Shown here: in pieces, positions 19,430 through 62,390 of the stretch | Layout of the letters: every line of letters starts with the position of its first letter | Numbering within the stretch: position 1 is the first letter of the stretch | NCBI GenBank assembly: GCA_030753015.1 | Contig: JASMDC010000023.1 | Coordinates: 1 to 62,390, forward strand | Length of the DNA stretch: 62,390 nucleotides | Source of the DNA: Candidatus Undinarchaeales archaeon | GTDB taxonomy: Archaea; SpSt-1190; JASMDC01 | Direction of reading: 5' to 3' | Translations under genes and position numbers: made by a program | Notes under the pieces: model-generated | Told to the model about the DNA's origin: nothing | Database searches by the model: none | Seen by the model: the letters and a program-made list of their open reading frames with translations, nothing else

Positions 19430-19439
19430 GTGACAGACC

Positions 19440-20395: not shown

Positions 20396-20396
20396 G

Positions 20397-21200: not shown

Positions 21201-21232
21201 TAGAACCAACAAGGTAGCAACAATCACCCTGT

Positions 21233-21317: not shown

Positions 21318-21394
21318 CTACTCTTTTCTGATTAGAATGAGTGCTCGGCGACCAAGTCCCAAGGTTTAAATTGATGAACCCGGTCGAAGGTTTC

Positions 21395-22072
21395 ATGGTA
21401 CTCGACTGGTTGGCCTCCAAGAAGGAAGCGGAGGAAAAGGAGAAAGGATCGGAGCCCCTCAAGGTGCCCGAGCCACCTAAAGCGCCGGAGACACCGAAGC
21501 CAAAGCCCATCGCGGTCCCAAGACCACCCTCGCCACCGGAAGTGCCGAAGCCAAGACCTATCGCGATCCCAAAACCACCCTCGCCACCGGAGACACCGAA
21601 GCCAAGGCCTATCGCGATCCCTAAACCACCCTCGCCACCGGAGGTGCCGCGAATCCCCAAGCCGCCCATCCCTGACGAAGAGCCAAAGAAGGGGACGGAC
21701 GCTCCGAAGGAGGAAGAGCTTCGCAAGAAAGAGGAACCGTCCAAGAAACCTGAAGAGGCAGAGAAGGAGGAGGGCGAGCCTATCGGGGCGCTCAGCAAGC
21801 TTGTGAGCAGCGTCAAGGAGGAGATTAGCGACATCCGAAGCCGTGTCAAGGATCTCGAGGATGAGGTTGACGCGAAGAAGACAAAGATCGCAGAGCTTGA
21901 GGACGCACTCAAGAAGAAGGAGGAAGGGGACGCTAAGCGCATCAAGAACCTCGAGGACGACCTCAAGAAGAAGGAGGATGACGCTAAGAAGCGCGAGAAC
22001 TCCTTCGAAGCGACCATCAGAGAACTCAAGGAAGCCCTTGACGCCATCGAAAAGGACCTTAAGGGCGCCTAG
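21395..22072 (+). CDS. Proline-rich repeat plus charged coiled-coil protein
   Basis: MVLDWLASKK start; three PKPxPIAxPxPPSPPE units; C-terminal Lys/Glu heptads; TTTAAA box upstream. Confidence 0.8.
   Translation: MVLDWLASKKEAEEKEKGSEPLKVPEPPKAPETPKPKPIAVPRPPSPPEVPKPRPIAIPKPPSPPETPKPRPIAIPKPPSPPEVPRIPKPPIPDEEPKKGTDAPKEEELRKKEEPSKKPEEAEKEEGEPIGALSKLVSSVKEEISDIRSRVKDLEDEVDAKKTKIAELEDALKKKEEGDAKRIKNLEDDLKKKEDDAKKRENSFEATIRELKEALDAIEKDLKGA
21485..21649 (+). repeat. Coding tandem repeat, 51-nt unit, about 3.2 copies
   Basis: Units begin CCGGA at 21485, 21536, 21587 and 21638. Confidence 0.9.
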
Positions 22073-29147: not shown

Positions 29148-32100
29148 GTGGGGGATGATCTCATGGCCGCTGTGGTGCTCGTGCTCGTGCTCACCTCGGC
29201 GACAGCGATCCCTGAGCTCGATGAGCTTGAACGCGCTGTCGTTCAACTGAGTGCCGGAGGTGCTGCCAGCGATTTCAGGGGTTGCGGCATGGGCGGTGAC
29301 GGAAAGGCGGACCTCGGTGACGATTGGGTGTGCACCGGCATCGAGGAGACACAGCTCCCCATGTTCAATGGGTACATGGACGCCTGCGAGACGCTGGGCA
29401 GCGCAGCGTATTGCTCCGCCGCTAAGCTTCTACTGGAGGCCGGGTCCACCGAGCGGGAAGGATGCAGTAGCTGCGGATGTGGCCCAGCTGAGCCTTTGTG
29501 CACGTATCTCGATACACAGACCGGCCTGGTACTGGCCGCGGCCCGGGCCTGCCGCGCCTTTGGTGGTGAGTACTGCAACACTACGCTCCTGTACGCATCA
29601 ACCCTCATAGTGAAGTGTGAGCAGTACGATGAGTGCTCCCGCAATGCGACCGTGGGTGCTGTCATGTCCGCTCTTGGTGAGGCATGCACAGCCACTGAGA
29701 ACAAGGAGGTGTGCAGCAACCTCTTCAAAGTAGTGGACGACCATATCGCCAGCACATCAGGTGCGGGCTTCCCCTCCATCGATCACCACTCCGCCCTCAT
29801 ACAGGGCCTTGCCCAGGCATGTGACCGGGGTTCCGTGGACGCTTGCGGGGTTCTCAAGGCGGCCGCCGCTGAGCCCCAGGACACCAACGATCCCCGCGAG
29901 CTTGTTTCCCTTCTGGATGCGTACACGGATGCATGTAACGTGCTCGATGGGAACGACACAGCCGGCGAGCACTGCCAACGTCTTTTCGACCTGATCACTC
30001 TTACAAAGCCCGTGTGTGGCCTAGAGGCGTGTGCGCAGGGCGATGTGGCCGGTCAGCTCATGCGAGCGCTTTTCCCCCTCTGTAGCGCGTTCGGCAAGGG
30101 GTGTGAAGAAGCGGAGTATATCGCCCGCCTCAAGGACACTCCGTGCGGCATCGGCCCGAACGGTAAAGCATCTCGCCACGACGACATATGGAACTGTGGT
30201 TCGGACAAGATCAGGGATGCTGGTTTTCTCATGCAGGGTTACGCTGCAGGCTGCCGCGCTAAGCCTGAGGAGCAATTCTGCCTAGCGCTCTCCCTGATGG
30301 CGGACACCGGGGCCGGGAGCGAGTCGGGCAGATGTGGCATGGAGGACGGCACCTCGGATGACGACGATGATTGGGACTGTGGCGGCGCCTGGGAGCAGGC
30401 TTCCTCCGCCATCGCCATGGTCAAGGCCTGCGAAGTGCTCGATCCCATGGTGAGGGATCCCTCATGCGAGGCGTCCAAGCGCCTCCTGCACGGCTACTCA
30501 ACGGTCTATGGCTGTACGGACTGCGGGTGCGGTATGCGGGATGACACTTCAGAGGGGTTGGACGATTGGGAGTGCGACACTGATTTCGCTCAGGGCACTA
30601 TGATGGTGATGTATGGGCAAGCCTGCCGAATATTTGGTTCCGAGTCGGAATATTGTACCGCGCTCAAGTACATGGCAGAGCGAGCAGCGGCCTTGTTCGT
30701 ACCTGATGAAAGCCCGGAAACGCATGCCATGCTCGCTCTTGGTTTTGCCGAGGCCTGTGAGCTCCTGGACAGTGGGCGCAGGGACGGCGCATTCTGCACG
30801 CATCTTTCCACGGTGCTCAAAGCAAACGATACGCTCGACTGTTGGCGCACACAGATAGGGCTCTGGTGCCGCGACGAAGTCGCTCAGGGCCTGCTCATGC
30901 TTTCATATGCACGAGGGTGCGATCTCCTTGAACTCCCCCGTGTCACGGGACCTTTCTGCACCCAGCTCCGCGACCTTGGATTGGGTGGGATTGACGAGAT
31001 CGTGACCAGTCAATTGGAACGTGAGGTCGTTTCAGTCATCGGGCTCTCAGACGTCTTCACATCCTCGGAGTTCGTGCTCACACTTGCATATGCCCGTGCA
31101 TGCGAGCTCACAGAAGTGCCATCTGAGGGGCCGTTCTGTCAGGAGTTCCTTATCCGGGGCGCAAAAGGCTCTGTGGACCGTATTAATCCGCTGTTCGGAT
31201 GCGGCCCTGCTTCAGCCGAGCGTATTGAGGGCGACTGGGATTGCGATCAGCCAGCCGCGCAGGGGGAGGCCATGATGGCCTATGCAAAGGCCCTCGAGCT
31301 GTGCTCTAGGGAGTTCACCATCCCCTGGGAGCTCTGCGAGATGCCGTTTCGACGATACCTACTCAGTCTTACGGAATCGTCATCGTGTGGACTTGGGGGG
31401 GCATCGGGAAAGGGTGCTTGGAACTGTGAGAACGGTGGATCACAAGGCATGGCCATTCTTGGCTATCTTGCCGCGTATGACGTGATCGATGACCTCCTGT
31501 TCACCTCCCCTTATCCCCTCTTCGGGCCGGTGCCCGATGCAAGCGAGCGGGAGAACCCTCTCTGCGATGATGGTAACAACTGCACGCAGGAGCGATGGAG
31601 CGGGACCGCATGTGTAACTGAGTTCCTGGAGTGCGGTCATGCTTGCGGCAAGGGGGGCGTATGCGATGGCGAGGGTAGATGCGAGGTGCTCGGACAGGTG
31701 AACGCCTCGTGCATATGCCCTGAAATGTGTGCATCAGGGCTGATATGCGCAGAGGGAACGTGCGCGTCCTCAATATGTGGTGATGGACTATGCGAGGACG
31801 AATGCACTAGCTGCCCGGAGGACTGCGTTCCCGATGACTGTCTGGGGGACGGTAATTGTGAACCGCCGATGGGAGAGACATGCGCCGTTACCGCAGAGGA
31901 TTGCCTATGCTTGCGAGGATTCATCTGCAAGCCCAAGCGAAAGCACTCAAGTGCGTCAGGATGCTATGAGATCAAATGCGGGGACAATTTCTGTGACAGC
32001 CCTGATGAGAGTTCAGTGACCTGTTGTGAGGACTGCCGATGCCCCCCCGATTACCAATGCAACACGGCGACCCACTCATGCACGCTCTCATGTGGTGATG

Positions 32101-32759
32101 GTACGTGCAATTCTGAAGAATGCGGAAAATGCCCCAAGGACTGTGCTCCCGGCGACTGCGAGAATGGTGTGTGCGAGACGGATATAGGCGAGAGCTGCCA
32201 GAACACTCGTGATTGCATTTGTCGTACCCATATTGATGCGAAGCCTGAGGAGATCTCCAAGGAAGGGGATCCCCTTCGTGTGTCATTCCTCATCGAGAAC
32301 CAAGGGAACATGAAAGAAACCTATGATATCAAGCTCAGGTCCTCGATCAACGGTGAAGATAAGGACAGGACCATCGAGCTATCCCCGGGACTCAACTACG
32401 AGATCGATACATCGGTCACCATGGCACCTGCGGGAGAGTACAGGGTCACCCTGATGGTGTCCCCCAGGAGCGTCAAACGCCCCCTCACCGAGACGACGCT
32501 CGTTATAGTGAGCGCTAAGAGCTTCCTTTCACGCGTTCTTGAAGACAGCCCTCTGCGGGTGCTCCTCGACCTCAAGGACACCATTGAGATCATGCTGTTA
32601 CTAGGGATGGCAATGTTATTCATCAATAGGGCGGTGAAACGGCATCGGCGGCCACGCTATCCGCAGGACTCTTACTTCCTCTACAACTACTATCCCCCTC
32701 AATGGTACACCCGGGAAGGCTATTACCAGTACCAACAACAGGGCGGACACGGTAGATAG
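29148..32759 (+). CDS. Large Cys-rich membrane-anchored surface protein
   Basis: Signal peptide; repeated CG...(D)W.C and A.AC..L...C motifs; CGDG.C...C..CP.DC repeats; Ig-like domain (V.F.IEN.GN..ETY); C-terminal TM and Tyr/Gln-rich tail. Confidence 0.85.
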   Translation: MGDDLMAAVVLVLVLTSATAIPELDELERAVVQLSAGGAASDFRGCGMGGDGKADLGDDWVCTGIEETQLPMFNGYMDACETLGSAAYCSAAKLLLEAGSTEREGCSSCGCGPAEPLCTYLDTQTGLVLAAARACRAFGGEYCNTTLLYASTLIVKCEQYDECSRNATVGAVMSALGEACTATENKEVCSNLFKVVDDHIASTSGAGFPSIDHHSALIQGLAQACDRGSVDACGVLKAAAAEPQDTNDPRELVSLLDAYTDACNVLDGNDTAGEHCQRLFDLITLTKPVCGLEACAQGDVAGQLMRALFPLCSAFGKGCEEAEYIARLKDTPCGIGPNGKASRHDDIWNCGSDKIRDAGFLMQGYAAGCRAKPEEQFCLALSLMADTGAGSESGRCGMEDGTSDDDDDWDCGGAWEQASSAIAMVKACEVLDPMVRDPSCEASKRLLHGYSTVYGCTDCGCGMRDDTSEGLDDWECDTDFAQGTMMVMYGQACRIFGSESEYCTALKYMAERAAALFVPDESPETHAMLALGFAEACELLDSGRRDGAFCTHLSTVLKANDTLDCWRTQIGLWCRDEVAQGLLMLSYARGCDLLELPRVTGPFCTQLRDLGLGGIDEIVTSQLEREVVSVIGLSDVFTSSEFVLTLAYARACELTEVPSEGPFCQEFLIRGAKGSVDRINPLFGCGPASAERIEGDWDCDQPAAQGEAMMAYAKALELCSREFTIPWELCEMPFRRYLLSLTESSSCGLGGASGKGAWNCENGGSQGMAILGYLAAYDVIDDLLFTSPYPLFGPVPDASERENPLCDDGNNCTQERWSGTACVTEFLECGHACGKGGVCDGEGRCEVLGQVNASCICPEMCASGLICAEGTCASSICGDGLCEDECTSCPEDCVPDDCLGDGNCEPPMGETCAVTAEDCLCLRGFICKPKRKHSSASGCYEIKCGDNFCDSPDESSVTCCEDCRCPPDYQCNTATHSCTLSCGDGTCNSEECGKCPKDCAPGDCENGVCETDIGESCQNTRDCICRTHIDAKPEEISKEGDPLRVSFLIENQGNMKETYDIKLRSSINGEDKDRTIELSPGLNYEIDTSVTMAPAGEYRVTLMVSPRSVKRPLTETTLVIVSAKSFLSRVLEDSPLRVLLDLKDTIEIMLLLGMAMLFINRAVKRHRRPRYPQDSYFLYNYYPPQWYTREGYYQYQQQGGHGR

Positions 32760-38583: not shown

Positions 38584-39579
38584 ATGCAGCTGAAGAGCGT
38601 CCTATCCATCCTCGCGATTCTATTCATCCTCTACGTCCTCAAGCCCCTTGTGGACGTCGTGGTGGCCGGTGCTGTGCTCGCCTACGTGCTCCGCCCCATG
38701 GACGAAGCGATCAGGCGCAAGGTCCATTCCGAGACCCTTGCCGCCGCAATCACCACCTTGTTGCTCGCCGCACCCCTCATCTTCCTTGGTCTCTACGCAG
38801 CCTACTCCATTGTGGTCGACGTAGGCGAGATGATGACTGAGATTGGATCATCCTCGGCCAGTGAGGTTGTGATGCGCCGGTTCCTCCCCCTTAAAGTGGT
38901 GGCGGGCCTTACACCCATTCTAGGTACTATCGAAGAGAGCGTCCAGAGCATCTCTCTGAGCCTTCCTCTCGCGCTCATTCAGCTGTTGATGATGTTCGCT
39001 ACGATGTTCTACTACTTTATCTCGGGACGCGAGGCTGAGCGCTATGCGTGCTCCCTCATCCCCCCCCACTTGATGCCGTGGCTTGAGACCATCTGGGTGC
39101 CGGTCGGGAACGTGCTCCGGGGGATGCTTTACGGACATCTTATCACATCGATATTCATCGGTGTATTGGCCGGTATCGGATACGCCATCCTGGGTCTATC
39201 CCATGCAGCACTTCTCGGTGCGATGACCCTGGTTGCTTCCCTCCTCCCCATCGTCGGGCCCTACGCCGTGTTCGCACCAGTGGCCATCGTGGAGTTCATG
39301 ACCGGGAGCGCCCTCAAGGCCGTAGCCGTGTTCGTATACGGGTTCGTTGTGCTCACCGGGTACGCCAACCTCTATCTCTACCCTAAGATAGGGGGCAGCT
39401 ACGCTGGGATCCACCCTCTGCTCGTGCTTGTTGCTTTCATCGCCGGACCGCTGACGATGGGACCTGTAGGGCTCATCTATGGACCGCTCGCCATGGGCAT
39501 TGGACTTGGATTGGCCGAGAGCGTGCGTCACGGGCGCTGTCAAGAGGGCAATCAGAAGGTGGAGATGGACGATGCGTAG
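38584..39579 (+). CDS. AI-2E family transporter
   Basis: LAYVLRP, YYF..G, SLLPIVGP, LYP.IGG....IHP.LVL.AF..G...G..GL.YGP. Confidence 0.88.
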   Translation: MQLKSVLSILAILFILYVLKPLVDVVVAGAVLAYVLRPMDEAIRRKVHSETLAAAITTLLLAAPLIFLGLYAAYSIVVDVGEMMTEIGSSSASEVVMRRFLPLKVVAGLTPILGTIEESVQSISLSLPLALIQLLMMFATMFYYFISGREAERYACSLIPPHLMPWLETIWVPVGNVLRGMLYGHLITSIFIGVLAGIGYAILGLSHAALLGAMTLVASLLPIVGPYAVFAPVAIVEFMTGSALKAVAVFVYGFVVLTGYANLYLYPKIGGSYAGIHPLLVLVAFIAGPLTMGPVGLIYGPLAMGIGLGLAESVRHGRCQEGNQKVEMDDA

Positions 39580-41602
39580 GGCAACGCTCCCCCTTGTCCT
39601 CTTCCTGCTCCTGGCAGTCCCGGGATTGAGCGAGGACGGAAATAGCACCACTAACACAACTACCCCCGCACCCGCGTTCACTACGGACTTCGACGCAGAG
39701 CTCGAGATAACCGCAGCGAGTATGAGCGATGCCAAGTCCCTCGTGCTCTATATCAACGAGACCGTCAATCGCCTCAACGAAACGATAAACCGTACCGATG
39801 CATGGGCATCGCTCAGCGAGGCGATGAGTGAGCTCGATACGGCCCGATCCTATCTCACAAAATCCGCCGATTATCGCGAGGTATCCGACGATGTGTTCAT
39901 GGGATATCATACACTCGCCCGTTCCCATGTTCAAGAGGCACGCGCCTTGGCCCAGGATGCGAACGACACGGCCATGTCCCTACAGCGGTCCTTCCAGGAC
40001 CGGGAACGGCTGGGCGAACAGGTCGGCGACCTTCTGCTCTCTGCGACCATACTACACCAGACCGTGGAAGGGATGATAAGCCTCTCTCGGGACCGGGTCC
40101 AGGAGGCACGCGACATCGGCCTGGACATGACGATCGCCGATGGCGAGCTCCTCCTCGCCCAAGGAAAGGTGGATGCCGGTGTCACGGTGCTCGAATCCGC
40201 AGAGACCGCTGCGAGCTCAGACGACCCCATCTTGGCCCTCTCTCACCTCAGCGAGGCAGAGAGCAAGTTCCTGGACGCTCAAGGCCATGCCGATGCCGCA
40301 CAGAACATCGCTCTTGAGGCCATGGGGCGAAGTCAAGAGCGTACCGCGGGGCTCCGCACTCAGGTAGAAGCCGTCGGGAACCTCACCACAGAGACCGCTG
40401 CTCAGCTCACCACTACCGAGGCCATAATCACCTACTTGTCGGAGAAGGGACTGACGACACAAAAGTACAACGACCTGCTCTCTCGGGCACGAACCCATCG
40501 CGAGCAAGCCGCAACGGCCCTCACGAGTGCCCTCAACCGGCTGGATGCCGGCTTGGCGGACGAGACCCAGGATTTCACGCTCACAGCGCTGGACAACGCG
40601 CAGCAGGCTCGACGCAGCACCACGCTGGCCGCTGAGGAGGCACGTGCCGACATAGACACGATGGTATCCTCTGCGTACACCTCCGCCTCCCTCATTCTTA
40701 ACAGGACCCTGGAACTGAAGAGCTCGATGGCCGTCTCCCTGAACGTCACAGCCGCTGTGGAGGTTGAGAAGGGCATTCTTGATGTGCGCTCGCAGTTGGG
40801 GATTGCCGAAGGATTCCTAGACCGGCTCAAGGCATCACAAGTGCTGCCTGAGCGGTCACGGGTGGAGGCGGCACTGGATGCTTGTTCCGTGGCAAGCGAG
40901 CTCGCTACCACGCTCAGGAAGAACCTGGAAGCCATCAAGGACGATCATGATTCAGCACAGGCCTCCCTCGTTACAGCGTCCCGTATGCTGAACACGGCCA
41001 TGCCCACGTTCATCGGAGCCGAAAACGCCGTCCAAAAGCGATACCATGGTGAATACACGCGGCTCACGGAGGAGTACGTGAGCTTGGAAACACGGTTCAA
41101 CGGCTCGTCATATGGTAGTGTGGTCGATCCCGCACGCGAGCTTGCGATACAGGGCGCCGTACTGGAGACGCGTATCAAGGGTTATACTGATTGCCTGACC
41201 GCTATAGCATCGGCCGACGTGGCACTGGAGGAGCTTCGGAACGCTGCCAATCAAAGCCTCTCCGGTGTCGGGGCAGAGAAGGTCCGGGAACTGGAGGAGC
41301 TACTCGATACCGCACGAACTAACGCCCGCTCAGAGGCATTCAACGTCTCCCTAGAAGCTGCCGTGTCCACTAAGGAGCATGCCCTCGACCTTGCCCTCAC
41401 TGCGGAGCGTAACCGTGATGACCGGATACGAGTGGGAGTGCTCGCAGGCTTCACGTTGTTCCTCTTCCTCATTGGTAGCGTCGTTGACAGGCGAATAGCA
41501 GGCACTGGGCGTGGGGATATATCCACGGATGAGAATGGTGAAGGGCTAGATGGCGCGGTCAGCCCCACTCCCAACGTCGACGATGAGAAAGCCAGCCATT
41601 GA
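39572..41602 (+). CDS. Secreted long alpha-helical/coiled-coil protein with C-terminal TM anchor
   Basis: Signal MRRATLPLVLFLLLAVPGLS; Ala-rich helical repeats; N-glycosylation sequons; TM VGVLAGFTLFLFLIG. Confidence 0.8.
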   Translation: MRRATLPLVLFLLLAVPGLSEDGNSTTNTTTPAPAFTTDFDAELEITAASMSDAKSLVLYINETVNRLNETINRTDAWASLSEAMSELDTARSYLTKSADYREVSDDVFMGYHTLARSHVQEARALAQDANDTAMSLQRSFQDRERLGEQVGDLLLSATILHQTVEGMISLSRDRVQEARDIGLDMTIADGELLLAQGKVDAGVTVLESAETAASSDDPILALSHLSEAESKFLDAQGHADAAQNIALEAMGRSQERTAGLRTQVEAVGNLTTETAAQLTTTEAIITYLSEKGLTTQKYNDLLSRARTHREQAATALTSALNRLDAGLADETQDFTLTALDNAQQARRSTTLAAEEARADIDTMVSSAYTSASLILNRTLELKSSMAVSLNVTAAVEVEKGILDVRSQLGIAEGFLDRLKASQVLPERSRVEAALDACSVASELATTLRKNLEAIKDDHDSAQASLVTASRMLNTAMPTFIGAENAVQKRYHGEYTRLTEEYVSLETRFNGSSYGSVVDPARELAIQGAVLETRIKGYTDCLTAIASADVALEELRNAANQSLSGVGAEKVRELEELLDTARTNARSEAFNVSLEAAVSTKEHALDLALTAERNRDDRIRVGVLAGFTLFLFLIGSVVDRRIAGTGRGDISTDENGEGLDGAVSPTPNVDDEKASH

Positions 41603-44316: not shown

Positions 44317-45813
44317 TCACAGGTAACCCAAGCGTTCCATACCCTCTTGGAGCCGGACGGCCGGATCTTCCCCAGAGGCGGCCAGGTTGATGGCCAAACT
44401 TACTAGCTCTCGCTTCTTCTCCAGGGTCACGGTAAAAGCCCCCGAACGCTCACGTGCGATGAAACGGGCGAATACCTTCAATGTCGGGCGCGGGTCCCAC
44501 TCGGCCTCCAGCAGCTCGGTCGCCAAATCACCGTACCACACGACGTCGTCGGCCCCGGAACCGTCGTCAGCAAGTATGGGGAGGATGAAGCGTGTAAGGA
44601 AGGAACCTATCTTAAGCGGTTCCTCGGGTTCGGTCCCGTTGTAGCTCTTCATTGCCGCCGAGCTCTTCACCATGCTCGAAACCACGGCCCGTGCCTGCTG
44701 CATAGGGATGATGTTCAGCGCGCCTTCCAGCCGTTCGAACGCCGTGGGTTCGAAAACCTTCTTTGCCCGGTCAAGGAACCGTGTGACGGTCTGGTCGTAG
44801 GTGCCCCGGACGCTACCATACTGGAGTCGGGTTGGGGACGCAACGGTGACCTTCGCACTCGGGGGGGTATCCTCTTTCGGGAGCGGTGATTCGTCATCGA
44901 GGATTGATTCAGGGGCTGTAATCTCCTCCGATGGGAGCTCCTCCTCAGCGGGTCCTTCGATCCCATCAGACTCCTCCTCCTCAGGAATCCCCCGTAGCTT
45001 TCGGATGTAGCCGGTGATGCGGTTACCGTAGCTCCTATTCCTATCATTCTTCGCATCACTCTCGCTTTGCACGATGCCCGGCGTATAACGCGTGTCCACA
45101 CTCTCCTTCTTGCCGCCGAGGAGCTCGCGGGGGTCGTACCGAGTGATCCATAACCGGTAATCCCGTCGCTGATGCCCGTCAGGACGGGGGATATTGCCGT
45201 ATCCTCCAATCCGAGCCGTGTAGGAGCCCCCTCGATCCTCCTTGCGGGAGCCCAGCATATTGTGGATGTTTTTGTAAACGGTCTCAGCGACCGATGAACC
45301 GATCCATCCACCCAGGCTTCCACCAACAAGAAAGATGGGGATGATGAAAGCCTTGGGGAACGTTTCTGGAACGAAGAGGACTATGCCGCCGAGGGTGAGT
45401 GCTCCGCCGACAAAAGTCCCTGCTGCCATTTCTCGCACTTTGTTGCGTTTAGCATTCGCCGTGACGTACTTGAACAGATAGACGGTCCATAGGACGACTA
45501 CGATGGCATGTCGTGCCATGAGCGGAAGTTCCTGTGCGCTCTCCACGCCCACGGTCAAGGAAAGGAGAATGAGAAGAACTGCGATCTCGGCCTCCCATCC
45601 CTTGGTATTGAAGAACTGCGTGTTCTTGAGCACCTGGCCCATGATGATTGCTGACAGTCCCATGGCTACAACTGCGACGGGATTGGAGATCACTTCAAGG
45701 AACGTCTCCCCTATCGGTTCGGACATGCGCGCAAGGAGGTCCAGGTCCTGTGGACCAAGAGAAGGTCTGAGTGACGGGATTGCGGTCGCGGCAAGGGTGG
45801 CGTTGTCTGCCAT
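44317..45813 (-). CDS. Hypothetical protein: N-terminal about 5 TM segments, acidic linker, C-terminal helical domain
   Basis: Hydrophobic N-terminal third; Glu/Pro-rich linker; overlaps no other credible gene. Confidence 0.7.
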   Translation of the reverse strand: MADNATLAATAIPSLRPSLGPQDLDLLARMSEPIGETFLEVISNPVAVVAMGLSAIIMGQVLKNTQFFNTKGWEAEIAVLLILLSLTVGVESAQELPLMARHAIVVVLWTVYLFKYVTANAKRNKVREMAAGTFVGGALTLGGIVLFVPETFPKAFIIPIFLVGGSLGGWIGSSVAETVYKNIHNMLGSRKEDRGGSYTARIGGYGNIPRPDGHQRRDYRLWITRYDPRELLGGKKESVDTRYTPGIVQSESDAKNDRNRSYGNRITGYIRKLRGIPEEEESDGIEGPAEEELPSEEITAPESILDDESPLPKEDTPPSAKVTVASPTRLQYGSVRGTYDQTVTRFLDRAKKVFEPTAFERLEGALNIIPMQQARAVVSSMVKSSAAMKSYNGTEPEEPLKIGSFLTRFILPILADDGSGADDVVWYGDLATELLEAEWDPRPTLKVFARFIARERSGAFTVTLEKKRELVSLAINLAASGEDPAVRLQEGMERLGYL

Positions 45814-47216: not shown

Positions 47217-49241
47217 GTGATGTCCCACCGCGGTGCCGCCATTCTTGCGCTCCTCCTCGTTCTTTCGGGCCTGGCCGAGGACGATTTGGCCATCCAGCTT
47301 TACGATCCGGCCATTCAACACATGGTCGTGTCATCGGCGGAGCTTCCCGTCAACATCACCAACGGTCCCTTTGCCTTCCTCAACCTCGGCTCTCCCCAGA
47401 ACGTCACGCTCCTTCCCTCCGGGGACCTGGTCAATGTCACGAACATCACCGAAGTATCCATACGCTCCAAGAGCTCCGTAAAGCGAATGTCTTGGTTCGA
47501 GAACACCACGTTGCTTCTGGATCGCGATCGGGAGCTGCGGATCGAGCGAATGAGCTTCAACATCACGGACCCGGGGCTATGGGAGGGTGGTATCTCCATC
47601 CACTACTCCAACCGTTCATTCACCTTCCCCATCCGGATCCGTGTGGAGGAGCAGCGTTACATAGCTTATATGGCTACCAGTATCCGGCACACTGCAGACC
47701 TTCTGGAGGACGAGCCCCGGACAATGCGTGATGCGGCCTACTCCTATATCGAAGCCGCTAAATATTACAGACTGCTGCTAAACGTGGCCAACGAGGATTA
47801 CTGCAGGCGGAAAGCGACAGGGATCCTCGACCGGGTGGTTGCCCAGGATTCGGCTAACAAGACCCGCTGGAACGACCTCAGGACCCTTGCCGAGCAGTAC
47901 CAGCTCCTTGACGACACTGAAGAGCTGTCCTCCATCCAGAACGAACTTATCCCCTGGTACTCGGACAAACTCTCTGCGGACCTCACCTATTACGCACCTC
48001 TGGCCCAGGCCTTCACCGACATCGGTGCCATTGACAAAGCGGAGCGTACCCTTCAGCTCTACGCCCAGCGTCTTGACGAAGTGGCCAACGCTACGGAGGG
48101 GATGCGACGTGCTGAGGACCTTGAAGCCGCCGCTCGCGTGTACGAACGCCTGTGCGATCGCAAGCGAGTGCAGGAGCGATACCTCGCTGCCGCTGAGGCC
48201 TACAGGAAGGCAATCCCTACAAGCGGTAATGTGCCCGACAATACTTTGGCCTTATGGTCCTTCGACATCGCTGAGCTTTACAAGAAGGCCGGAGAGCCCG
48301 TGAGGGCAGATCAGTACTACCTCTCGAGTCTGGACATCATTCTCAACATCATCAGGACGCGAGAGCTCCAGCACATCCCCCTTACCTTCAAGGCCGTCCG
48401 TATCTATGGTCGGCTTGAGAACGACCGGGCCGGTGAGCTCCTCGATCTCCTCGCCAGCCCCTATGTATCGGCCAACCAGACCTGGGAGAAAGATTTCCAA
48501 GTGCTCATGGGGCTGGAGAGCGTGTATCGATGGGCGTGGGAGTCCAATCACACAATGCTCGTGAACAAGACCTGTTCTCTGGGCACCACCCTCTCGACGA
48601 CCCTTGGTGACCAATACCACCTGAGCATGTACACTGCATGCCATCCTCCCGTTCCGGACGAGGTATGCATCAACCTCCTCCCTCTCGCTCTGGAAGTATG
48701 GATCGACACGGACGTCCAGCGTTTGATTACCAGTCTCTCAGAGACCTCCAAGACCCGTGAGCTCGCAGATGCTCTCGATGGGGGGGAAATGGTGCTAACA
48801 ACGGACATAATCGCAAATGCATCGGTCACAGACCGTCTCGTACTCGAGGCAATCAGGGATGTATGCCGGCAGCGTATGTCCCCCATGCTCCCCGGACCCT
48901 TCAATGCGAGCCTGACCACTATCAATGGATCTCTAGTGTGTTTCACACAGCTTGCAGAGACGTCGGTCAATGGGACTCGAGTCGCATCGCCGACTCCCGG
49001 TAACGTCACAACTACGGCCCGCCCCGATCCGACGGGGAAGGTGCTCAAGAGCCTCCTAATCATGGTCCTTGTCATCGCGGTCGTGATCGTGCTCCTAACG
49101 TACCATAGCCCGCCGCAGGAACCCGAACCAGCACCACGACAACCCAGCCCGGAGAAAACCGAGATACCGCCTCCCGAGCCCCCTGACGAGGATGAGGAGC
49201 TCGAGGACGACGACGATCTTAATCACGAGCATGAGCATTGA
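47217..49241 (+). CDS. Membrane-anchored surface protein with TPR/SNAP-like helical repeats
   Basis: Signal peptide, many NxS/T sequons, repeats such as AAYSYIEAAKYY and YLAAAEAYRKA, C-terminal TM and Pro/acidic tail. Confidence 0.75.
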   Translation: MMSHRGAAILALLLVLSGLAEDDLAIQLYDPAIQHMVVSSAELPVNITNGPFAFLNLGSPQNVTLLPSGDLVNVTNITEVSIRSKSSVKRMSWFENTTLLLDRDRELRIERMSFNITDPGLWEGGISIHYSNRSFTFPIRIRVEEQRYIAYMATSIRHTADLLEDEPRTMRDAAYSYIEAAKYYRLLLNVANEDYCRRKATGILDRVVAQDSANKTRWNDLRTLAEQYQLLDDTEELSSIQNELIPWYSDKLSADLTYYAPLAQAFTDIGAIDKAERTLQLYAQRLDEVANATEGMRRAEDLEAAARVYERLCDRKRVQERYLAAAEAYRKAIPTSGNVPDNTLALWSFDIAELYKKAGEPVRADQYYLSSLDIILNIIRTRELQHIPLTFKAVRIYGRLENDRAGELLDLLASPYVSANQTWEKDFQVLMGLESVYRWAWESNHTMLVNKTCSLGTTLSTTLGDQYHLSMYTACHPPVPDEVCINLLPLALEVWIDTDVQRLITSLSETSKTRELADALDGGEMVLTTDIIANASVTDRLVLEAIRDVCRQRMSPMLPGPFNASLTTINGSLVCFTQLAETSVNGTRVASPTPGNVTTTARPDPTGKVLKSLLIMVLVIAVVIVLLTYHSPPQEPEPAPRQPSPEKTEIPPPEPPDEDEELEDDDDLNHEHEH

Positions 49242-54946: not shown

Positions 54947-57016
54947 ATGGGGCACACCCTTATCATCGCGGAGAAACCTCGGGCCGCCGCCCGAATTGCT
55001 GCGGCCTTGGCCGACGGTGAGGTGATCAAGAAAGGAAGTAAGGGCGTCTCATCGTATTCGCTCACTCGAAAAGGCCAGAAGATTGTCGTTGCTGCCGCCG
55101 TTGGCCACATCTACTCCCTCCGTCAGAATGATAAGAAGGGCTGGGTGTACCCGGTGTTCGACGTGGACTGGGCCCCTGCGCACGAGGTTCGCAAGGATGG
55201 GGCATACACGAAGAAGTACCTCACTGCCCTCAAGGCGGCGGCCAAGGGTGCCGAGCGCTTCGTAGTGGCCTGCGACTTCGACATCGAGGGTAGCGTTATC
55301 GGGTTCAACGTACTGAGGTTCGCCTGTAAGAAGAAGGACGGCGCCCGGATGCACTTCTCCACCCTCACCAAGCACGAGCTTGAAGAGGCTTTCGAGAAGG
55401 CTAATCCTTCTCTCGATTGGGGTATGGTGGAAGCGGGGCTCACCCGCCATGTAGCCGACTGGTTCTTCGGTATCAACCTCTCACGGGCTCTTACACTGGC
55501 CATCAAGAACGCTGTCGGGATGTTTAAGGTCATGAGCACAGGCCGCGTCCAAGGCCCCACGCTCGCCATCCTGTGCGAGCGCGAGCTCGAGATCAAGGCT
55601 TTCGAGCCCACGCCGTTCTGGCAGCTCGAGCTCCATGCCTTGGTGGACGGGGCTGAGATCGTGGCGCTCCACGCTGCCGACAAGTTCTGGAAGGAGAATG
55701 AGGCCACGACCGCCCACTCACGCTCCCAGGCCGATCCCGGTATCGTTCAAGACGTTTCCCGGAAGAAGTTCGAGCAGGCCGTACCGCCGCCCTTCGACCT
55801 CACTTCGCTCCAATCCGAGGCATACAAACAGTTCAGCTTCGCCCCCACACGCACTCAGGAGCTTGCTCAGACACTCTATGAGTCGGGGCTCATCTCGTAC
55901 CCCCGTACATCGAGCCAGAAGCTCCCCGAACGCATCGGATTCAAAGAGATCCTCAAGGGACTTGCCTCCCTCTTTCCCAAGGAGGTCGAGCTCCTCTTGG
56001 GCATGAAGAAGCTCGTCCCCAAGGAGGGGAAGAAAGAGGATTCTGCCCACCCCGCCATCTACCCCACTGGCGAGAAGCCCAAGATGCTCACCGATCAGGA
56101 GCGAAAGCTCTTCGATCTTATCGCCCGCCGTTTCCTTGCGGTCTTTGGAGAACCCGCCGTTCGGGAGAGCCTGAAGGTCACCATCCGCGTGGGCGAGGAA
56201 GACTTCATCGCAGAGGGGAAGCGCACGGTGGAACCGAACTGGCACACACTCTATGGACCCTTTGCTAAGTTCGAGGAGGTGCTCCTCCCGAACATGGACA
56301 AAGGGCAGGAGGTCAGTGTACAGAGCATCGACCTTCTTTCGAAGGAGACGCAGCCCCCCCGGCGCTTCTCGCCCGCGTCACTTGTCAAGCGGATGGAGAA
56401 AGAGAACATCGGCACCAAGGCAACGAGAGCATCCACGGTGGACACCCTTTCATCGCGAGGGTACGTGACCGGGGATATTATCGAGGTCACTGAACTAGGT
56501 CTTCAAGTCTACTCCATCCTCACCAAGTACAGCCCGCGTATCCTCGATGTCGAGCTAACACGCCAGTTCGAGGATGACATGATCCGCATCCAGGAGCGAA
56601 AGACCGACCGGAAAGAGGTGCTCGAGCGACTGCGTTCCAAGCTCGAGGACATCCTAACGGAGTTCAAGTCCAACGAGGACAAGATCGGAAAAGAACTTGC
56701 TGATGCTATCAGAGCCACCAACCGTGCAGCCCTGGTCATAGGCCCCTGTCCGGTATGCGGGAAGGGCGACGTTCGCATCATCCGTAGCAAGAAGAGCGGT
56801 AAGCGCTTCGCGGGATGTTCGAACTACCCCGAGTGCTCCAACTCTTACCCCCTACCCCAGCGCGGGAACATCATCGGTAGTAAGAAACCATGCCCGACAT
56901 GCAATCACCCCAGGATTACGGTGAAGGGCGGCGGCAGGCGACCTTGGAGGATGTGCCTGAATATGGAATGCCCGAGTCGGGAACGGAAAGAAGAAAACGG
57001 AGGGAATAATCCGTGA
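54947..57016 (+). CDS. topA: DNA topoisomerase I (type IA, archaeal)
   Basis: [56 protein letters not shown]-terminal zinc ribbons. Confidence 0.97.
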
Positions 57017-59793
57017 GCGGTTATGACCACGCTCGGATCGAGCAGACATGGCAGAAGCGTTGGGAGGAGGCCGGTATCTTCAAGGTCTCCGAGGATCCCG
57101 CTAAAAAGAAGTTCTACTGCCTCGAGATGTATCCCTATCCATCGGCGACCCTCCACGCCGGTCACCTGCGTAACTACGCCCTTGGCGACACCCTCACCCG
57201 CTTCAAACGCATGCGGGGATACAATGTGCTCTACCCCATGGGCTACGATGCGTTCGGCCTACCCGCGGAGAACGCTGCCATCAAGCATAGCACCGATCCT
57301 GAGACGTGGACCTGGGACAACATCAACGCCATCAAGGTCCAGCAGAAGCGCATGGGACTAAGTTACGACTGGGACCGTCAGATCCAGAGCTGTACTGAGG
57401 ACTATTACCGCTGGAACCAATGGATCTTCCTCAAGCTCATGGAGAAGGGTCTGGTGGACCGACGCGGAGCCATCGTTAACTGGTGCCCGTCGTGCGCCAC
57501 CGTGCTGGCCAACGAGCAGAACATCAACGGCAAGTGCTGGCGCTGCTCCTCCACCGTGGAGTATAAGGACCTCACCCAGTGGTACTTCAAGATCACCGAG
57601 TATGCCGAAGAGCTGCTGTCCGGTCTAGAGGGCCTTGACTGGCCAGAGCGTGTCAAGATCATGCAGCGCAACTGGATCGGGCGCAGCGAGGGCACCATCA
57701 TCGAGTTCGAGGTCAAGGATACCGGTGAGACCGTGCCCATCTTCACAACCCGCGCCGACACCCTCTACGGCGTCACCTTCATGGTGTTCGCTCCCGAGCA
57801 TCCTTGGGTGCACACATGGGTGAAAGGCACCGAGTACGAGGAGGAGTTCAACGCCTTCCTTGCCGAAGTGCAACTGGAGGACAAGTTCGAGCGAACCGAC
57901 GCGGAGCATGAGAAGAAGGGTATGTTCATCGGGAAGCACGCAATACACCCCATCCTCGGGACGGAGATCCCGATCTACGTGGGTAATTTCGTTATCTACG
58001 AGTACGGTGCCGGGGCCGTTATGGCAGTTCCTGCTCACGACCAGCGCGACTTCGAGTTCGCTAAGAAATTCGACATCCCGATCATCGTGGTCATCCAGGC
58101 CCGTGGCTACAAGCTGGAAGCGGATAAGATGCACCGCGCATACATCGAGGACGGCGACCTGGTCAACTCGGCCGAGTTCGACGACTGGGAGAACCGCGAC
58201 GCGATCGACGCAATCGGGAAGAGGCTCAAGGAGATGGGTAAGGGAGGCCCCACGGTGAACTACCGACTCCGTGACTGGCTGATCTCACGTCAGCGCTACT
58301 GGGGCACACCGATCCCCATTATCTATTGCGACAAGTGCGGTATCGTCCCCGTGTCAGAGGACCAGCTGCCCGTTTTGCTTCCCAAGGACGTCACGTTCAG
58401 CGGGGGTGGGAATCCCCTGGAGACCTCCAAGGGATTCGTGAACACTACCTGCCCCACATGCGGCAAGCCGGCTCGACGCGAGACGGACACAATGGACACC
58501 TTCGTGGACTCGTCCTGGTACTTCCTGCGGTACTGCTCCCCTCAAGAGAACGCTGCTCCTTTCGCTCGGGACGCGGCCCAGTACTGGATGGCTGTGGACC
58601 AGTACATCGGTGGTATCGAGCATGCGGTGTTGCACCTGTTGTATGCTCGCTTCTTCACAAAGGCACTCCGGGACATGGAGCTCCACAGTATCGACGAGCC
58701 CTTCTCGGCCCTCCTGTGCCAAGGCATGGTGAACAAGGAGGCACCGTTCTGTGAGACGTGCGATATCCACCTCCAACCAGGCAGGCACGAGAATAGGAAA
58801 TGCGTCGAGTGCGGGAATCCCTATGTCATGCGCACGGCCAAGATGTCCAAGAGCCTGGGGAACACCGTCAACGTCATGGAGCTCATCGAGCGGGCGGGCG
58901 CCGACGCCTCGCGCTTGTTCATCCTCTTCGGCTCGAATCCCGAGAAGGAGTTCGAGTGGGCAGACCAGGGGCTGGAGAACGCGAGCAAATTCCTCCATAG
59001 GCTCTACCATACACTTAGTGAGCATCCCTCCGACGTGCGCGAGGACATCATCTCAACAGACGATCATATGCTCTTCCTGCTCCACCGCACCATCCGCAAT
59101 GCTACCCGCAACTACGAACAGTTATTGTTCCGTTGGGCAATCCATGAAGTGATGGCATTCACCAAAGAGCTCAGCCGATACAAGCTAGGGAGCGTCAACC
59201 GCAAGGTGTACGAGGAATGTGTCCGTAACCTCGCACTGCTCGTGGCCCCCATCACACCACACCTTGCTGAGGACGTGTGGGAGCACCACGGGAGGGGGGG
59301 ATTCATCTCGCTGGCATCGTGGCCCGAGCATGATCCGAAAGTGCTCACGCCCGAGTCAGAGTACCAGTGGGGCCTCTACAGCGCAATCTGCGACGATGTG
59401 GTAGAGATCCAGGGCATCCTGGGCAGCAACAAGCACGAAGCGATCACGCTCATCGGAGCTGCCGACTGGAAGTTCGACTTCATGCGGCGGTACTCGGAGG
59501 TCTCTGGCGACGAGCGCGATCAGGGCACGCTCATGAAGGCCGTCATGGAGGTGGACACCCTCCGCCGGTACGGGAAGCAGGTCTCACAGCTCATCCCACG
59601 TCTCCTGAAGAATCCCTCGTGGGTACCGTCACTCGTGCTGTCTGAGGATGACGATGCGCAGGCTCTGGAGCTAGTTGCCCCCATGGTGTCCAAACGTTTC
59701 GGATGCGCGGTGGAGGTCGTCCGCGAGACCCTCTCGAAGGACGCGAAGGCCACCCGGGCATTGCCGGGGAAGCCCGCGATCGTGGTACAATAG
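57013..59793 (+). CDS. leuS: Leucyl-tRNA synthetase (bacterial-type core, archaeal-type C-terminus)
   Basis: [90 protein letters not shown]. Confidence 0.97.
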
Positions 59794-59794
59794 C

Positions 59795-60472
59795 TCACTC
59801 GACCGGTCGACAGGGAGCCCCCCCCGGGAGCCCCATCCTCAGTCGCACGTTATCCAAGTCTGCGAGCTCTTCAGCTGTGAGCGCCACCTCTCCACCGAGC
59901 CGTCGGGCCCTGTACACCGTCTCTGCAAGATGCTCCACCTCCTCCAGGCGGTGATAAGCCTCCTCGAGGTCGCCACCGAAGGTCACGACACCGTGATTTG
60001 CCAGGAGCACCGCGTTGGCATCAGCAAGGAACGGTGCCACCGATTCCGGGACCTCCCACGTCGAGAGGGTCGCATAGGATGCCAAGGGTACGGCGCCCAC
60101 GGTGAGCACGCTCTCGGGTAGAACGGCGCGGTCCAAGGGGATGCGTGCCGTAGCGAAGGCCGTGCAGAATGGAGGGTGTGCATGGACCACCGCCGCCACA
60201 TCAGGTCGTACGGTGTACGCAGCCAGATGGAGCCTGAACTCGGAAGATTGCCTGTAGAGGCAATCCTGGCGAACGAGCTTGCCGGCACCGTCCACAAGCA
60301 CTATCTGTTCAGGTGACATCTCACCCTTGCACACCCCGGAAGGTGTTGTGAGGAACAGGTCATCCCCGCATCTGGCGGATATATTTCCCGACGTCGCCAC
60401 GACGTAGCGGTGATCGTACATCCGTCGACCTATGTCGCAGATACGCTGTCGCAACCAGTCGGGATTGGCCAT
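59795..60472 (-). CDS. Class II aldolase/adducin family protein (fuculose-phosphate aldolase-like)
   Basis: ICDIGRRMY...SGNISAR, TPSG..KG, SSE..LH, VVHAHPP, LLANHG, EEVEH.A. Confidence 0.92.
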   Translation of the reverse strand: MANPDWLRQRICDIGRRMYDHRYVVATSGNISARCGDDLFLTTPSGVCKGEMSPEQIVLVDGAGKLVRQDCLYRQSSEFRLHLAAYTVRPDVAAVVHAHPPFCTAFATARIPLDRAVLPESVLTVGAVPLASYATLSTWEVPESVAPFLADANAVLLANHGVVTFGGDLEEAYHRLEEVEHLAETVYRARRLGGEVALTAEELADLDNVRLRMGLPGGAPCRPVE

Positions 60473-60478
60473 TGGAAG

Positions 60479-61891
60479 CTAGTTACCTTCACCGCTCTCG
60501 GCGCCTTTAGTGATGGCGACGGAAGCGGAGGCTCCGATACGGGTCGCTCCCGCAGCGATCATGGCCTTGGCGGTCTCGGTATCACGGATCCCACCTGATG
60601 CCTTTATTCCCATGTCGGGGCCGACGGTGGTCCGCATGAGCGCGATGTCCTCCACAGTGGCACCCGAGGGCCCGAATCCTGTTGAGGTCTTGACGAAGTC
60701 GGCGCCGGCCATCTTGGCCAATAGGCAGCCGCGCACCTTCTCATCCTTGCTCAGGAGCGCGGTCTCAAGGATTACCTTGACGATCGCTTGGCCTTGAGCC
60801 GCTTCGACCACGGCCTCTATATCGCGACGGACGAGATCGTCGTCCCCGGACTTGAGCGCACCTACGTTGATGACCATGTCTATCTCGTTGGCGCCATTTG
60901 CGATGGCATCACGGGTTTCAATACCCTTGGTCGTGGGTGTTGTGGCACCCAGTGGGAATCCGATGACAGTAGTGACCTTCACATTGGATCCCTTCACCAG
61001 GTCGGCGGCTTGCTTGACGTTTGTGGGATTGATGCACACCGAGGCGAAGCCGTACTGGACGGCCTCCTCGCATAGCTTGCGGATCTGCTCGGTGGTGGCG
61101 TCGGGTTTGAGCAGAGTGTGGTCGATCGTCTTGGCGATCTCCTTGTCCTCGATCCGCGTTCCCGCCGCTGCGCCGATGCGGTCGGCACCAGCAGCGAGTA
61201 TGCCACGGACACTATCGGCGTTGTTGATCACGCAAAGCCCGCATGCCAGGCACTCCTCACCCTTGCCCTGTGCGCACACGAGGGATACCTTCTTCCCTCC
61301 GGCGATATCGGCCAGGTCGACCAGTGTGAGCCCGAGCTCCTCCAAGCCATCGAGCATGCCCTCCAAGCGTTTACGGGCCCCATCAGGTACCTGCTCCAGG
61401 GGGATACATGCGGAGGGGATACCGTCACGTGCCGCTACGACGGTCTTTCCCTGAAGAGCTGCGAACACCGCGAGCTTGACAGGTAGTGTGTCTGTTACGG
61501 TGTCAGCTATCTTCGATGCCGACGCAAGGTCCAGAAGAGGGATGAATACCACAGATGCACCTTTGAGAAGGTTGAGTACATCAGGGCCATCGCTCTCGGT
61601 GAGAATAGTAGCTCCGGGCGCTGCCACGGAGAGCCTCGAACTCGGGAAGAGCGCCTCTGCCCCGTTCGCGAGCACGATGGTGGCGTCGGATGCCTCGGCA
61701 CAGATGCACCGCACCTGGTCGAGCACGGCATCCACATCGCCGCGGTCCCCTGCGAGCACAACGAGCACTCCTCCTGGGGGAGTCGAGGGAGCAAAGGATT
61801 CGGGACACGCTTTCTCAGGCGCTTCCATTCGCTTCATGACCTGCTCCGTGACCTTCTTAACAAGCGATTCGATGTCGGTGTCCTGAACCAT
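60479..61891 (-). CDS. deoC: Deoxyribose-phosphate aldolase with N-terminal encapsulation-peptide-like helix, flavoprotein-like domain and Cys linker
   Basis: C-terminal [64 protein letters not shown]; N-terminal [17 protein letters not shown]; GAGGTTGA ribosome-binding site. Confidence 0.93.
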
Positions 61892-61896
61892 TGTAA

Positions 61897-62187
61897 TCAA
61901 CCTCTGACCAGTGCTGGGTCGGGTATGTTCACTCCCTCTACATGGCCAATTATTGCTAGGTCCACGGGGAGAAAGTGGCCCTCGAATGGGTGGGTGGCCT
62001 CCTTCTTTGTGGCAAGATATACCAGTTCACCAGGCCCGGTCGTGCCTAGTGCGTCGACCGCGACCTCATGACGGCCAATTACCTCTCCGGCCTCATTGAC
62101 GCGCTGCACAACAAGGAGCTTGATGCCCGTGAGATGGGGGTCCTTTTGTGTACATACGACATTGCCCACCACCTGCGCGAGGAGCAT
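61897..62187 (-). CDS. eutN: EutN/CcmL family microcompartment vertex (BMC-P pentamer) protein
   Basis: [28 protein letters not shown]...[14 protein letters not shown]......EA.......[11 protein letters not shown], 96 aa. Confidence 0.92.
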
Positions 62188-62209
62188 GGCGGGAAGGGAG
62201 CGCTGCAGC

Positions 62210-62217
62210 TTTAAATA
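62210..62217 (-). promoter_or_regulatory. Archaeal TATA box of the eutN-deoC-aldolase operon
   Basis: TATTTAAA on the minus strand, 22 nt upstream of the ATG at 62187, matching the spacing of other leaderless genes in the window. Confidence 0.65.
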
Positions 62218-62247
62218 GGTTGTCACAGGGTTTAGAATAAGAAGATG

Positions 62248-62273
62248 GGGGCCCCGGCCATGGCCGGAACCCC
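62248..62273 (-). terminator. GC-rich hairpin followed by a pyrimidine tract, downstream of the partial gene
   Basis: Minus strand GGGGTTCCGGCCATGGCCGGGGCCCC followed by CATCTTCTTATTCT. Confidence 0.5.
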
Positions 62274-62311
62274 TCCAGCCCGTTCTCTATCTGTTTGCGA
62301 TCTCTGTAAGG

Positions 62312-62390
62312 TTACACGACCTGGTGCGATACCTTGAATCCGCTGGGCAGGTTCAGACCAATGATGATGCGCTGGTCCTTCACATCCCCG
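62312..62390 (-). CDS. 3' end of an unidentified gene running off the window
   Basis: Minus-strand frame ...GDVKDQRIIIGLNLPSGFKVSHQVV* ending at TAA 62312-62314. Confidence 0.55.
   Translation of the reverse strand, partial: GDVKDQRIIIGLNLPSGFKVSHQVV

Follow-up and report, generated by a model that had tools for sequence, protein, structure and literature searches.

Three genes at a contig end as the probable tail of a sugar phosphate-utilising microcompartment locus in a Candidatus Undinarchaeales genome

Background

Microcompartments of the sugar phosphate-utilising (SPU) class, a class name that reportedly goes back to Sutter et al. in 2021, have as their signature enzyme a deoxyribose-phosphate aldolase (DeoC or DERA), usually together with RpiB, and include an acylating aldehyde dehydrogenase (AldDH). 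Protein-shelled metabolic organelles were unknown in Archaea before a preprint of November 2025 (Du et al., bioRxiv 2025.11.08.687404; PMC12747264), which, in the portions of its text that were available, describes SPU-type archaeal microcompartments (AMCs) in 66 of 111 Hodarchaeales genomes and SPU-type loci in DPANN-affiliated and Thermoplasmatota lineages. The present analysis concerns three genes near the end of a 62,390-nucleotide contig (JASMDC010000023.1, the whole of which is called the window) of a Candidatus Undinarchaeales archaeon. An earlier reading of this DNA (the original prediction) had recognised genes of a bacterial microcompartment (BMC) in it and regarded BMCs as bacterial organelles, a view that the preprint has made outdated. 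The three genes are interpreted here as the 3′ end of a complete, selectively maintained SPU microcompartment locus in an archaeal genome, a reading that is given a probability of roughly 85%.

According to the available portions of the report by Du et al., AMC loci encode a fusion of a flavoprotein domain to DERA (Flav+DERA), AldDH, an electron relay of MNdh and a Ts shell protein with a CPGK motif, a ribose-phosphate isomerase (RPI), and a DUF protein, to which type II loci add TPI and a class II aldolase. Hodarchaeales shells were assembled in vitro and in Escherichia coli, with recruitment of cargo that depended on a helix, and 58 of the 66 Hodarchaeales operons encode a K/R-rich, disordered, DNA-binding tail on P2. 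The donor is given as Myxococcota, whose loci contain PTAC. Operons with an additional Tdp and without PTAC are described from DPANN archaea (“mainly SpSt-1190”) and an order of Thermoplasmatota, PTAC being reported as missing from SpSt-1190 and JASLWR01. Full-text literature searches returned Du et al. as the only report of microcompartments in Archaea, together with a preprint that cites it.

Gene content of the locus

The window is one entire contig (C33) of a 3.85-Mb metagenome-assembled genome (MAG) that consists of 117 contigs and has a completeness of 98.9%. A genome-wide search returned five matches to PF00936, the profile of the hexameric and trimeric shell proteins BMC-H and BMC-T, and two matches to PF03319, the profile of the vertex protein BMC-P, in addition to the one in the window; all seven lie at 146-152 kb of a 154.8-kb contig, C51. 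The original prediction had proposed a search of the whole genome for shell genes, AldDH and RpiB, and had noted that the window holds no BMC-H, BMC-T or AldDH gene. This is true of the window, but all of these genes are on C51, hidden by the contig break. By their profile matches, the co-located genes make up a complete shell set of one Tdp, two BMC-H (H1 and H2), one Ts and three BMC-P (P1 to P3).

The locus genes at the end of C51 are all on one strand. In the order reconstructed from C51 through a small contig, C14, and into the reverse strand of C33, the locus reads Tdp, H1, DUF242, P1, AldDH, MNdh, Ts, H2, P2, TPI, RpiB, two archaeal pilin-like genes, P3, Flav-DERA and the class II aldolase. 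Tdp is a 215-aa protein of the CcmP/CsoS1D type; DUF242 (242 aa; C51:146795-147523, equivalent to L009 11796-12524) belongs to no Pfam family; P1 has 104 aa and, like P2, matches PF03319; and H1, H2 and Ts match PF00936, the last being a tandem-domain BMC-T with a VCPGKY motif. The aldehyde dehydrogenase is EutE/PduP-like (PF00171; PRK15398, 642 bits against a cut-off of 403) and would be CoA-acylating, as its family suggests, and MNdh is an RnfC/NuoF-like flavo-iron-sulfur NADH dehydrogenase (rnfC, 306 bits). TPI is of bacterial type with an N-terminal extension (PF00121, 1.9e-92), and RpiB is identified by PF02502 (6.3e-48) and NF004051 (156 bits, cut-off 135). On these assignments the DERA, RpiB and acylating AldDH of an SPU locus are all present.

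The part of the locus in the window agrees with the original prediction of three tightly packed minus-strand genes for BMC-P, DeoC and a class II aldolase, all of the open reading frames (ORFs) being present as described and their domains recognised by profile match. P3, a 96-aa vertex pentamer protein read from ATG 62187, occupies 61897-62187 on the minus strand and matches PF03319 (EutN_CcmL, 5.1e-22); solved CcmL/EutN pentamers match almost the entire chain (query residues 1-86 to 1-93 of 96), the best of them at E 1.9e-12. The Flav-DERA fusion, 473 aa from a TTG start, lies at 60479-61900 on the minus strand, with an alternative ATG at 61891, and, when read from the TTG, overlaps P3 by the sequence TTGA. 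The last locus gene, 6 nt further on, encodes a 225-aa enzyme of the class II aldolase/adducin family (59795-60472, minus strand; PF00596 Aldolase_II, 2.4e-51). Its stop at 59795 is separated by a single base from the convergent stop, at 59793, of leuS (57013-59793, plus strand), which in turn overlaps by 4 nt the archaeal-type topoisomerase I gene topA (54947-57016, plus strand; TIGR01057 topA_arch, 742 bits with a cut-off of 458, versus 275 bits for topA_bact). The operon end 1 nt from leuS and the leuS overlap with an archaeal topA thus stand as the original prediction described them, and the same neighbourhood is found in a second species of the genus.

The likeness to the AMCs of Du et al., as far as the available text goes, extends to Flav+DERA, AldDH, MNdh with a CPGK-motif Ts, RPI, three P and two H proteins and a helix-bearing DUF protein; TPI and the class II aldolase are shared with type II, as is the fusion of DERA to a flavoprotein domain, whose fold is a predicted one here. 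An additional Tdp and the lack of PTAC are shared with the SpSt-1190 variant, and the nearest bacterial relatives are Myxococcota in both cases. In contrast to the Hodarchaeales AMCs as described there, P2 (96 aa, with the Pfam domain at residues 1-84) has no K/R-rich disordered tail, the locus includes no citrate synthase, PTAC or acetate kinase, and RpiB and P3 are set apart by pilin-like genes, a feature of which those portions of the report make no mention. The kind of system has therefore already been described, and very probably so has this variant of it; the locus is an independent instance outside the Asgard archaea that confirms the report. The shell proteins can also be compared with the model shell of Haliangium ochraceum (PDB 5v74), in that residues 8-212 of Tdp match HO-5816 (E 1.6e-66) and P3 matches its BMC-P (E 4e-08), a likeness in shell-protein homology; the cargo of that shell differs.

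Linkage across the contig break and selection on the locus

C51 ends in 77 nt that recur without mismatch (100%) as positions 1-77 of C14, a contig of 637 bp, and positions 561-637 of C14 are identical (100%) to the reverse complement of window positions 62314-62390. C14 shares such overlaps with the ends of two other contigs, C28 and C84, and is thus a collapsed two-copy repeat. A 3.6-Mb genome of the same genus (the congener) carries the full locus together with leuS and topA on a single 134-kb contig (L010), where positions 1-8542 correspond to C51:144749-153291, 8951-9587 to C14, and 9515-21395 to window positions 62386-50515. This genome was assembled independently, and its contig aligns with the three contigs at about 89% nucleotide identity. 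The alternative path, from C28 through C14 to C84, is contiguous on another contig of the congener. The congener resolves both paths through C14, and the window genes are therefore the tail of one locus. The original prediction had suggested looking for the same locus in sister archaeal MAGs, and it is found, collinear, on the 134-kb contig; the junction near 59794, where the original prediction had allowed for a chimera, recurs there with leuS and topA; and BMC-H and BMC-T genes, whose absence from the genome and its relatives would have spoken against a compartment, occur in both genomes.

The repeat is made of the archaeal type IV pilin-like genes that sit between RpiB and P3. Their products have a class III signal peptide and match TIGR02537 (arch_flag_Nterm) at 37.6 and 34.2 bits (cut-off 20), and the intact orthologue of the congener (L010 8852-9589) scores 37.6 bits. 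The first gene (266 aa) is at C51:153510-154310; the second begins at C51:154529, runs through C14 and ends in the window at 62312-62390 on the minus strand, where the contig overlaps and the profile match of the congener orthologue identify its last 26 codons and stop. An open-ended ORF of 52 aa at 62232-62390 was rejected as spurious, as it is the other frame at 62312-62390 that holds the 3′ end of the pilin-like gene. The family has at least four copies, with further members at the ends of C28 and C84 and at C40:74159-74671, and two of them stand in tandem inside the locus compared with one in the congener. Two near-identical pilin copies collapsed into C14, and this accounts for the break that left the shell genes outside the window.

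All 14 locus genes are open and collinear with those of the congener, and their ratios of nonsynonymous to synonymous substitution (dN/dS) lie between 0.013 and 0.10 (dS 0.11-0.59), with values of 0.058 for the aldolase, 0.047 for Flav-DERA, 0.053 for P3 and 0.10 for TPI; the value for leuS is 0.077. Purifying selection on the locus equals that on leuS in strength. These data bear on the possibility that the genes are a decaying relic of horizontal transfer, an orphan pentamer and enzymes that have lost their compartment. In favour of a relic are the lack of the classical core enzyme PTAC, the interruption of the locus by the pilin-like genes, and the restriction of BMC domains, among the 17 species genomes of the phylum, to the two of this genus. 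A relic would hardly keep its complete shell set (Tdp, two H, Ts and three P) and all of its enzymes in open frames in both species at leuS-like dN/dS, and the selection analysis largely refutes this explanation, leaving it barely credible.

An archaeal host

The genome that carries the locus is archaeal. Genes for the TATA-binding protein (TBP) are found four times, on four contigs, and no match to sigma-70 region 2 occurs in the 3.85 Mb, in a search that matched 10 of 10 bacterial and 0 of 4 archaeal control genomes. The window itself encodes a CCA-adding enzyme with archaeal-type second and C-terminal domains (PF09249, PF21133). The distribution of GC content is unimodal, with 97% of bases in contigs of 56-64% GC. 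The assembly contains no small-subunit rRNA of either domain, and so no 16S placement. Upstream sequences were compared among 2314 ATG-start ORFs of at least 250 aa, from which the 1306 with an in-frame stop no more than 60 nt upstream were used; their A+T content, about 0.42 elsewhere, reaches 0.52 at a peak -27/-28 from the start codon, the pattern expected of TATA boxes that precede leaderless mRNAs. At 3.85 Mb, and 3.6 Mb in the congener, these genomes are 3-6 times larger than those of the other 15 species of the phylum (0.6-1.2 Mb, DPANN-like, 72-94% completeness). Despite its size the bin does not look mixed, given the unimodal GC content and the lack of sigma-70. Genomes of about 4 Mb assigned to SpSt-1190 are mentioned in the available part of PMC10936187; no link between them and the present genome is drawn.

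Bacterial DNA that had entered an archaeal MAG by misbinning or by chimeric assembly would account for several features, including the nearest homologues of the locus outside the genus, which are Myxococcota (49-55% identity), the bacterial type of TPI, of the leuS core and of a MetK gene on C51, the contamination estimate of 5% and the unusual genome size. It is contradicted by the archaeal topA and CCA-adding enzyme on the same contig, by the archaeal pilin-like genes inside the locus, by the recurrence of the leuS/topA junction, at 89% nucleotide identity, on the separately assembled 134-kb contig of the congener, by a bin without sigma-70 and of unimodal GC, and by a TATA box conserved at the position, -27, that is typical of the genome. 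Misassignment is thus largely refuted and can be considered extremely unlikely.

The Flav-DERA protein and its relatives

The DERA (DeoC) catalytic domain of the fusion protein, at residues 255-464 (60509-61138, minus strand), is identified by TIGR00126 (deoC, 285 bits, cut-off 117.3), and the genome has no DERA besides this fusion. The original prediction had noted an encapsulation-peptide-like helix on DeoC, to which a predicted helix at residues 7-26 corresponds, but the N-terminal extension contains more than this, namely a disordered linker, a flavoprotein-fold domain and a four-cysteine motif. The Pfam search gave no match above cut-off for the N-terminal 250 aa, or for DUF242 and the pilin-like proteins. 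In the AlphaFold2 (AF2) prediction for residues 1-258 (mean pLDDT 72.5), an amphipathic helix at residues 7-26 (61823-61882, minus strand) is followed by a disordered stretch at 27-41 and by an alpha/beta domain, with block-mean pLDDT values of 82-94 across most of residues 44-200 and one block at 69. A Foldseek comparison of the model with the PDB gave PPC decarboxylase (1mvl) as the best match (E 2.8e-07, probability 1.00), followed by UbiX, EpiD and MrsD, with TM-scores by target of 0.54-0.74 among the listed matches up to E 1.5e-05. The domain at residues 44-200 (61301-61771, minus strand) is therefore predicted to have the HFCD flavoprotein fold, UbiX-like in kind.

An end-to-end alignment of 13 full-length Flav-DERA homologues shows the N-terminal helix in all of them, followed by a variable linker and the domain of about 160 aa. 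The linker before the DERA domain contains four cysteines, C209, C217, C220 and C223 (61232-61276, minus strand), each present in 90% or more of the aligned fusions, the motif being missing from the Heimdallarchaeota row; the four cysteines are a possible Fe-S site. The DERA domain is nearly invariant, with conserved stretches KVILET and DFVKTSTG (V376, I377, E379, T380 and D401-G408 invariant), which, from the E. coli enzyme, are presumed to hold the catalytic lysines. A stand-alone paralogue of the helix and flavoprotein module is provided by DUF242, as shown by hhalign (probability 98.9, E 2.9e-17, 236 columns); BLASTP of DUF242 against the DeoC N-terminus gave no match. Its C-terminal end is weakly similar to PduM and to TIGR02536 (eut_hyp), below the cut-offs. 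Helices resembling that of Flav-DERA, acidic and then amphipathic, also begin DUF242, AldDH and TPI, and the four helices have a sequence character that fits encapsulation peptides.

Relatives of Flav-DERA were examined among the best 80 of 482 confirmed matches, 12 of which align from within the first 45 residues. These are the congener (96%), nine MAGs of Myxococcota, Deltaproteobacteria or Polyangia (48-55% full-length identity), one “uncultured archaeon” MAG of 5.5 Mb (L013; 52% full-length, 49% in the best segment) and a closed Heimdallarchaeota chromosome (48% full-length, 46% in the best segment). The congener, the uncultured archaeon and the Heimdallarchaeota genome all carry BMC-H/T genes, directly beside the fusion in the closed chromosome. 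The five BMC-domain matches of the uncultured archaeon are spread across short contigs. A quick maximum-likelihood tree of 26 rows, comprising the window, the 12 loci and 13 shorter DERAs or outgroups picked by hand from the best 80, unites all Flav-DERA fusions in one clade (SH-aLRT 94), in which a long-branch Bacillota row (L024) also falls. The archaeal and Myxococcota lineages form a polytomy inside the clade, and no claim is therefore made on the donor or on the number of transfers.

The nine Myxococcota loci (L011, L012, L014-L017, L019, L020 and L022) were inspected in fetched flanks of up to 10 kb per side, less at contig ends. These SPU-type loci resemble the present one in the Flav-DERA fusion, in TPI, which is found within the flanks of all nine and which, like Ts, shows about 40-54% identity, and in the class II aldolase that directly follows Flav-DERA in six of them (42-50% identity). 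They differ in that the host here is archaeal and the putative promoters are of TATA type, and in that no Tdp occurs in their fetched flanks, the only other match to Tdp being in an Anaerolineales locus; PTAC, missing here, is present in Myxococcota loci according to the available portions of Du et al. (PMC12747264).

A putative promoter of the P3 block

The pilin-like genes part the P3, Flav-DERA and aldolase genes from the rest of the locus, which makes a separate promoter probable. A TATA-box-like TATTTAAA at 62210-62217 on the minus strand, -30 to -23 from ATG 62187, is the putative internal promoter of this sub-operon, and is the sole exact copy in the window (0.18 expected). The original prediction of a TATA box at leaderless spacing is upheld for the box, but the spacing holds only with the start at ATG 62187 and not with GTG 62226, up to which the P3 ORF is open. 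The start at ATG 62187, giving 96 aa, is the most likely one to judge from the sequence, because the Pfam domain begins only at residue 14 of the long ORF. In the congener the 45 nt directly before the P3 ATG are identical and the sequence farther upstream has diverged; the box also sits on the genome-wide upstream A+T peak. Both features support, at the level of sequence, the native archaeal transcription that had been proposed. A TTATAAAA box is found about 30 nt upstream of the topA ATG, the same distance as that of the P3 box, and GGAGG-like stretches precede genes inside the operon. The probable transcript of the block is a leaderless mRNA that depends on this archaeal TATA promoter.

A promoter of its own would also suit a different explanation, in which the three genes are an ordinary cytosolic operon for the catabolism of deoxyribose phosphate and other sugar phosphates and the neighbouring shell genes are irrelevant or unassembled. 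One or two pilin-like genes lie between the block and the shell genes, Flav-DERA as the sole DERA must also meet any cytosolic need, and PTAC is not there to recycle CoA in a shell. The first gene of the sub-operon is, however, a BMC-P vertex gene, the Flav-DERA helix is of the same type as those on AldDH, TPI and DUF242 of the shell block, the same order of P, Flav-DERA and aldolase is found inside Myxococcota BMC loci, and all of the shell genes are under strong purifying selection. A purely cytosolic operon is accordingly judged very unlikely.

Proposed metabolism and points that weigh against it

The archaeal metabolosome for DNA-derived deoxyribose phosphate that had been proposed gains support from the full shell set, AldDH, RpiB, the contig linkage and the archaeal host markers, and its working may be pictured after Du et al. 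and bacterial metabolosomes. Deoxyribose 5-phosphate would enter the shell and be split by Flav-DERA into glyceraldehyde 3-phosphate and acetaldehyde, and the trapped acetaldehyde would be converted by AldDH to acetyl-CoA with formation of NADH. Electrons would be passed out of the shell by MNdh and the CPGK-motif Ts trimer. RpiB, TPI and the class II aldolase may interconvert or cleave further sugar phosphates; the aldolase would yield dihydroxyacetone phosphate and an aldehyde, and TPI would take the dihydroxyacetone phosphate. Cargo could be recruited through the similar N-terminal amphipathic helices of Flav-DERA, DUF242, AldDH and TPI. Gene content, linkage, host, intact frames, selection and folds are features of the DNA and its models; assembly of the shell, the identity of its substrates, the export of electrons and the use of the promoter are inferred.

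Several observations weigh against a complete microcompartment locus. The join from C51 through C14 to C33 depends on the overlaps and on the synteny of a relative, C14 being a collapsed repeat of two copies, and the contamination estimate of the MAG is 5.0%. At least one exact TATTTAAA was present in 16 of 100 shuffled sequences, which makes the 8-mer alone statistically weak. No PduL/PTAC (PF06130) is found in the whole 98.9%-complete genome, in line with its absence from the window as first noted, nor is any acetate kinase; a citrate synthase is missing from the locus, two citrate-synthase-family matches being on other contigs. The recycling of CoA inside the shell is thus left without an explanation. 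An encapsulation helix cannot be recognised at the N-terminus of the class II aldolase, and the enzyme reaches the cut-off of no NCBIfam equivalog model, the best scores being 122 bits for 3-oxo-tetronate-4-phosphate decarboxylase (cut-off 250) and 114 bits for fuculose-phosphate aldolase (cut-off 264), so that any substrate or place in the shell given to it is tentative.

Possible acquisition and domestication of the compartment

The compartment genes appear to be fully domesticated, as indicated by putative archaeal TATA promoters at leaderless spacing, interleaved archaeal genes and purifying selection like that on leuS. A more far-reaching proposal, and an unlikely one, is that the microcompartment reached this large-genome genus (3.6-3.85 Mb), within a phylum of otherwise DPANN-type genomes of 0.6-1.2 Mb, by a route separate from that of the Asgard archaea and was remodelled there. 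The remodelling may include the Tdp-bearing shell, the lack of PTAC, the leaderless archaeal promoters and the type IV pilin-like genes fixed in the locus. As a part of this proposal, the pilins might couple the capture or uptake of extracellular DNA to the catabolism of deoxyribose phosphate, in parallel with the DNA-binding P2 tails of Hodarchaeales, and the flavoprotein-fold paralogues Flav-DERA and DUF242 might replace the missing cofactor-recycling step.

Other features of the window and of C51

LeuS has a hybrid appearance, with residues 4-779 matching the bacterial-type TIGR00396 (966 bits, above cut-off) and the C-terminal part, at about residues 605-926, matching the end of the archaeal-type models TIGR00395 and PRK12300. 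On C51, a bacterial/eukaryotic-type MetK (PF00438, PF02772, PF02773) is encoded at 135553-136716 (L009 554-1717), with some 9 kb between it and the microcompartment locus downstream. An Rfam scan of the window gave nothing beyond two tRNAs. Among ten large window ORFs, 7 had no family in an NCBIfam scan (E <= 1e-10) and 8 had none in a Pfam scan (E <= 1e-4). Seven large ORFs of 498-1203 aa are without a family at either threshold and are located at 1848-3713, 9470-11776, 14572-16617, 29148-32759, 39479-41602, 44317-45813 and 47217-49241. A 390-aa ORF at 12633-13805 on the minus strand joins a KaiC/RecA-like ATPase (residues 4-142) to a small GTPase of the Arf/Ras type (residues 235-388).

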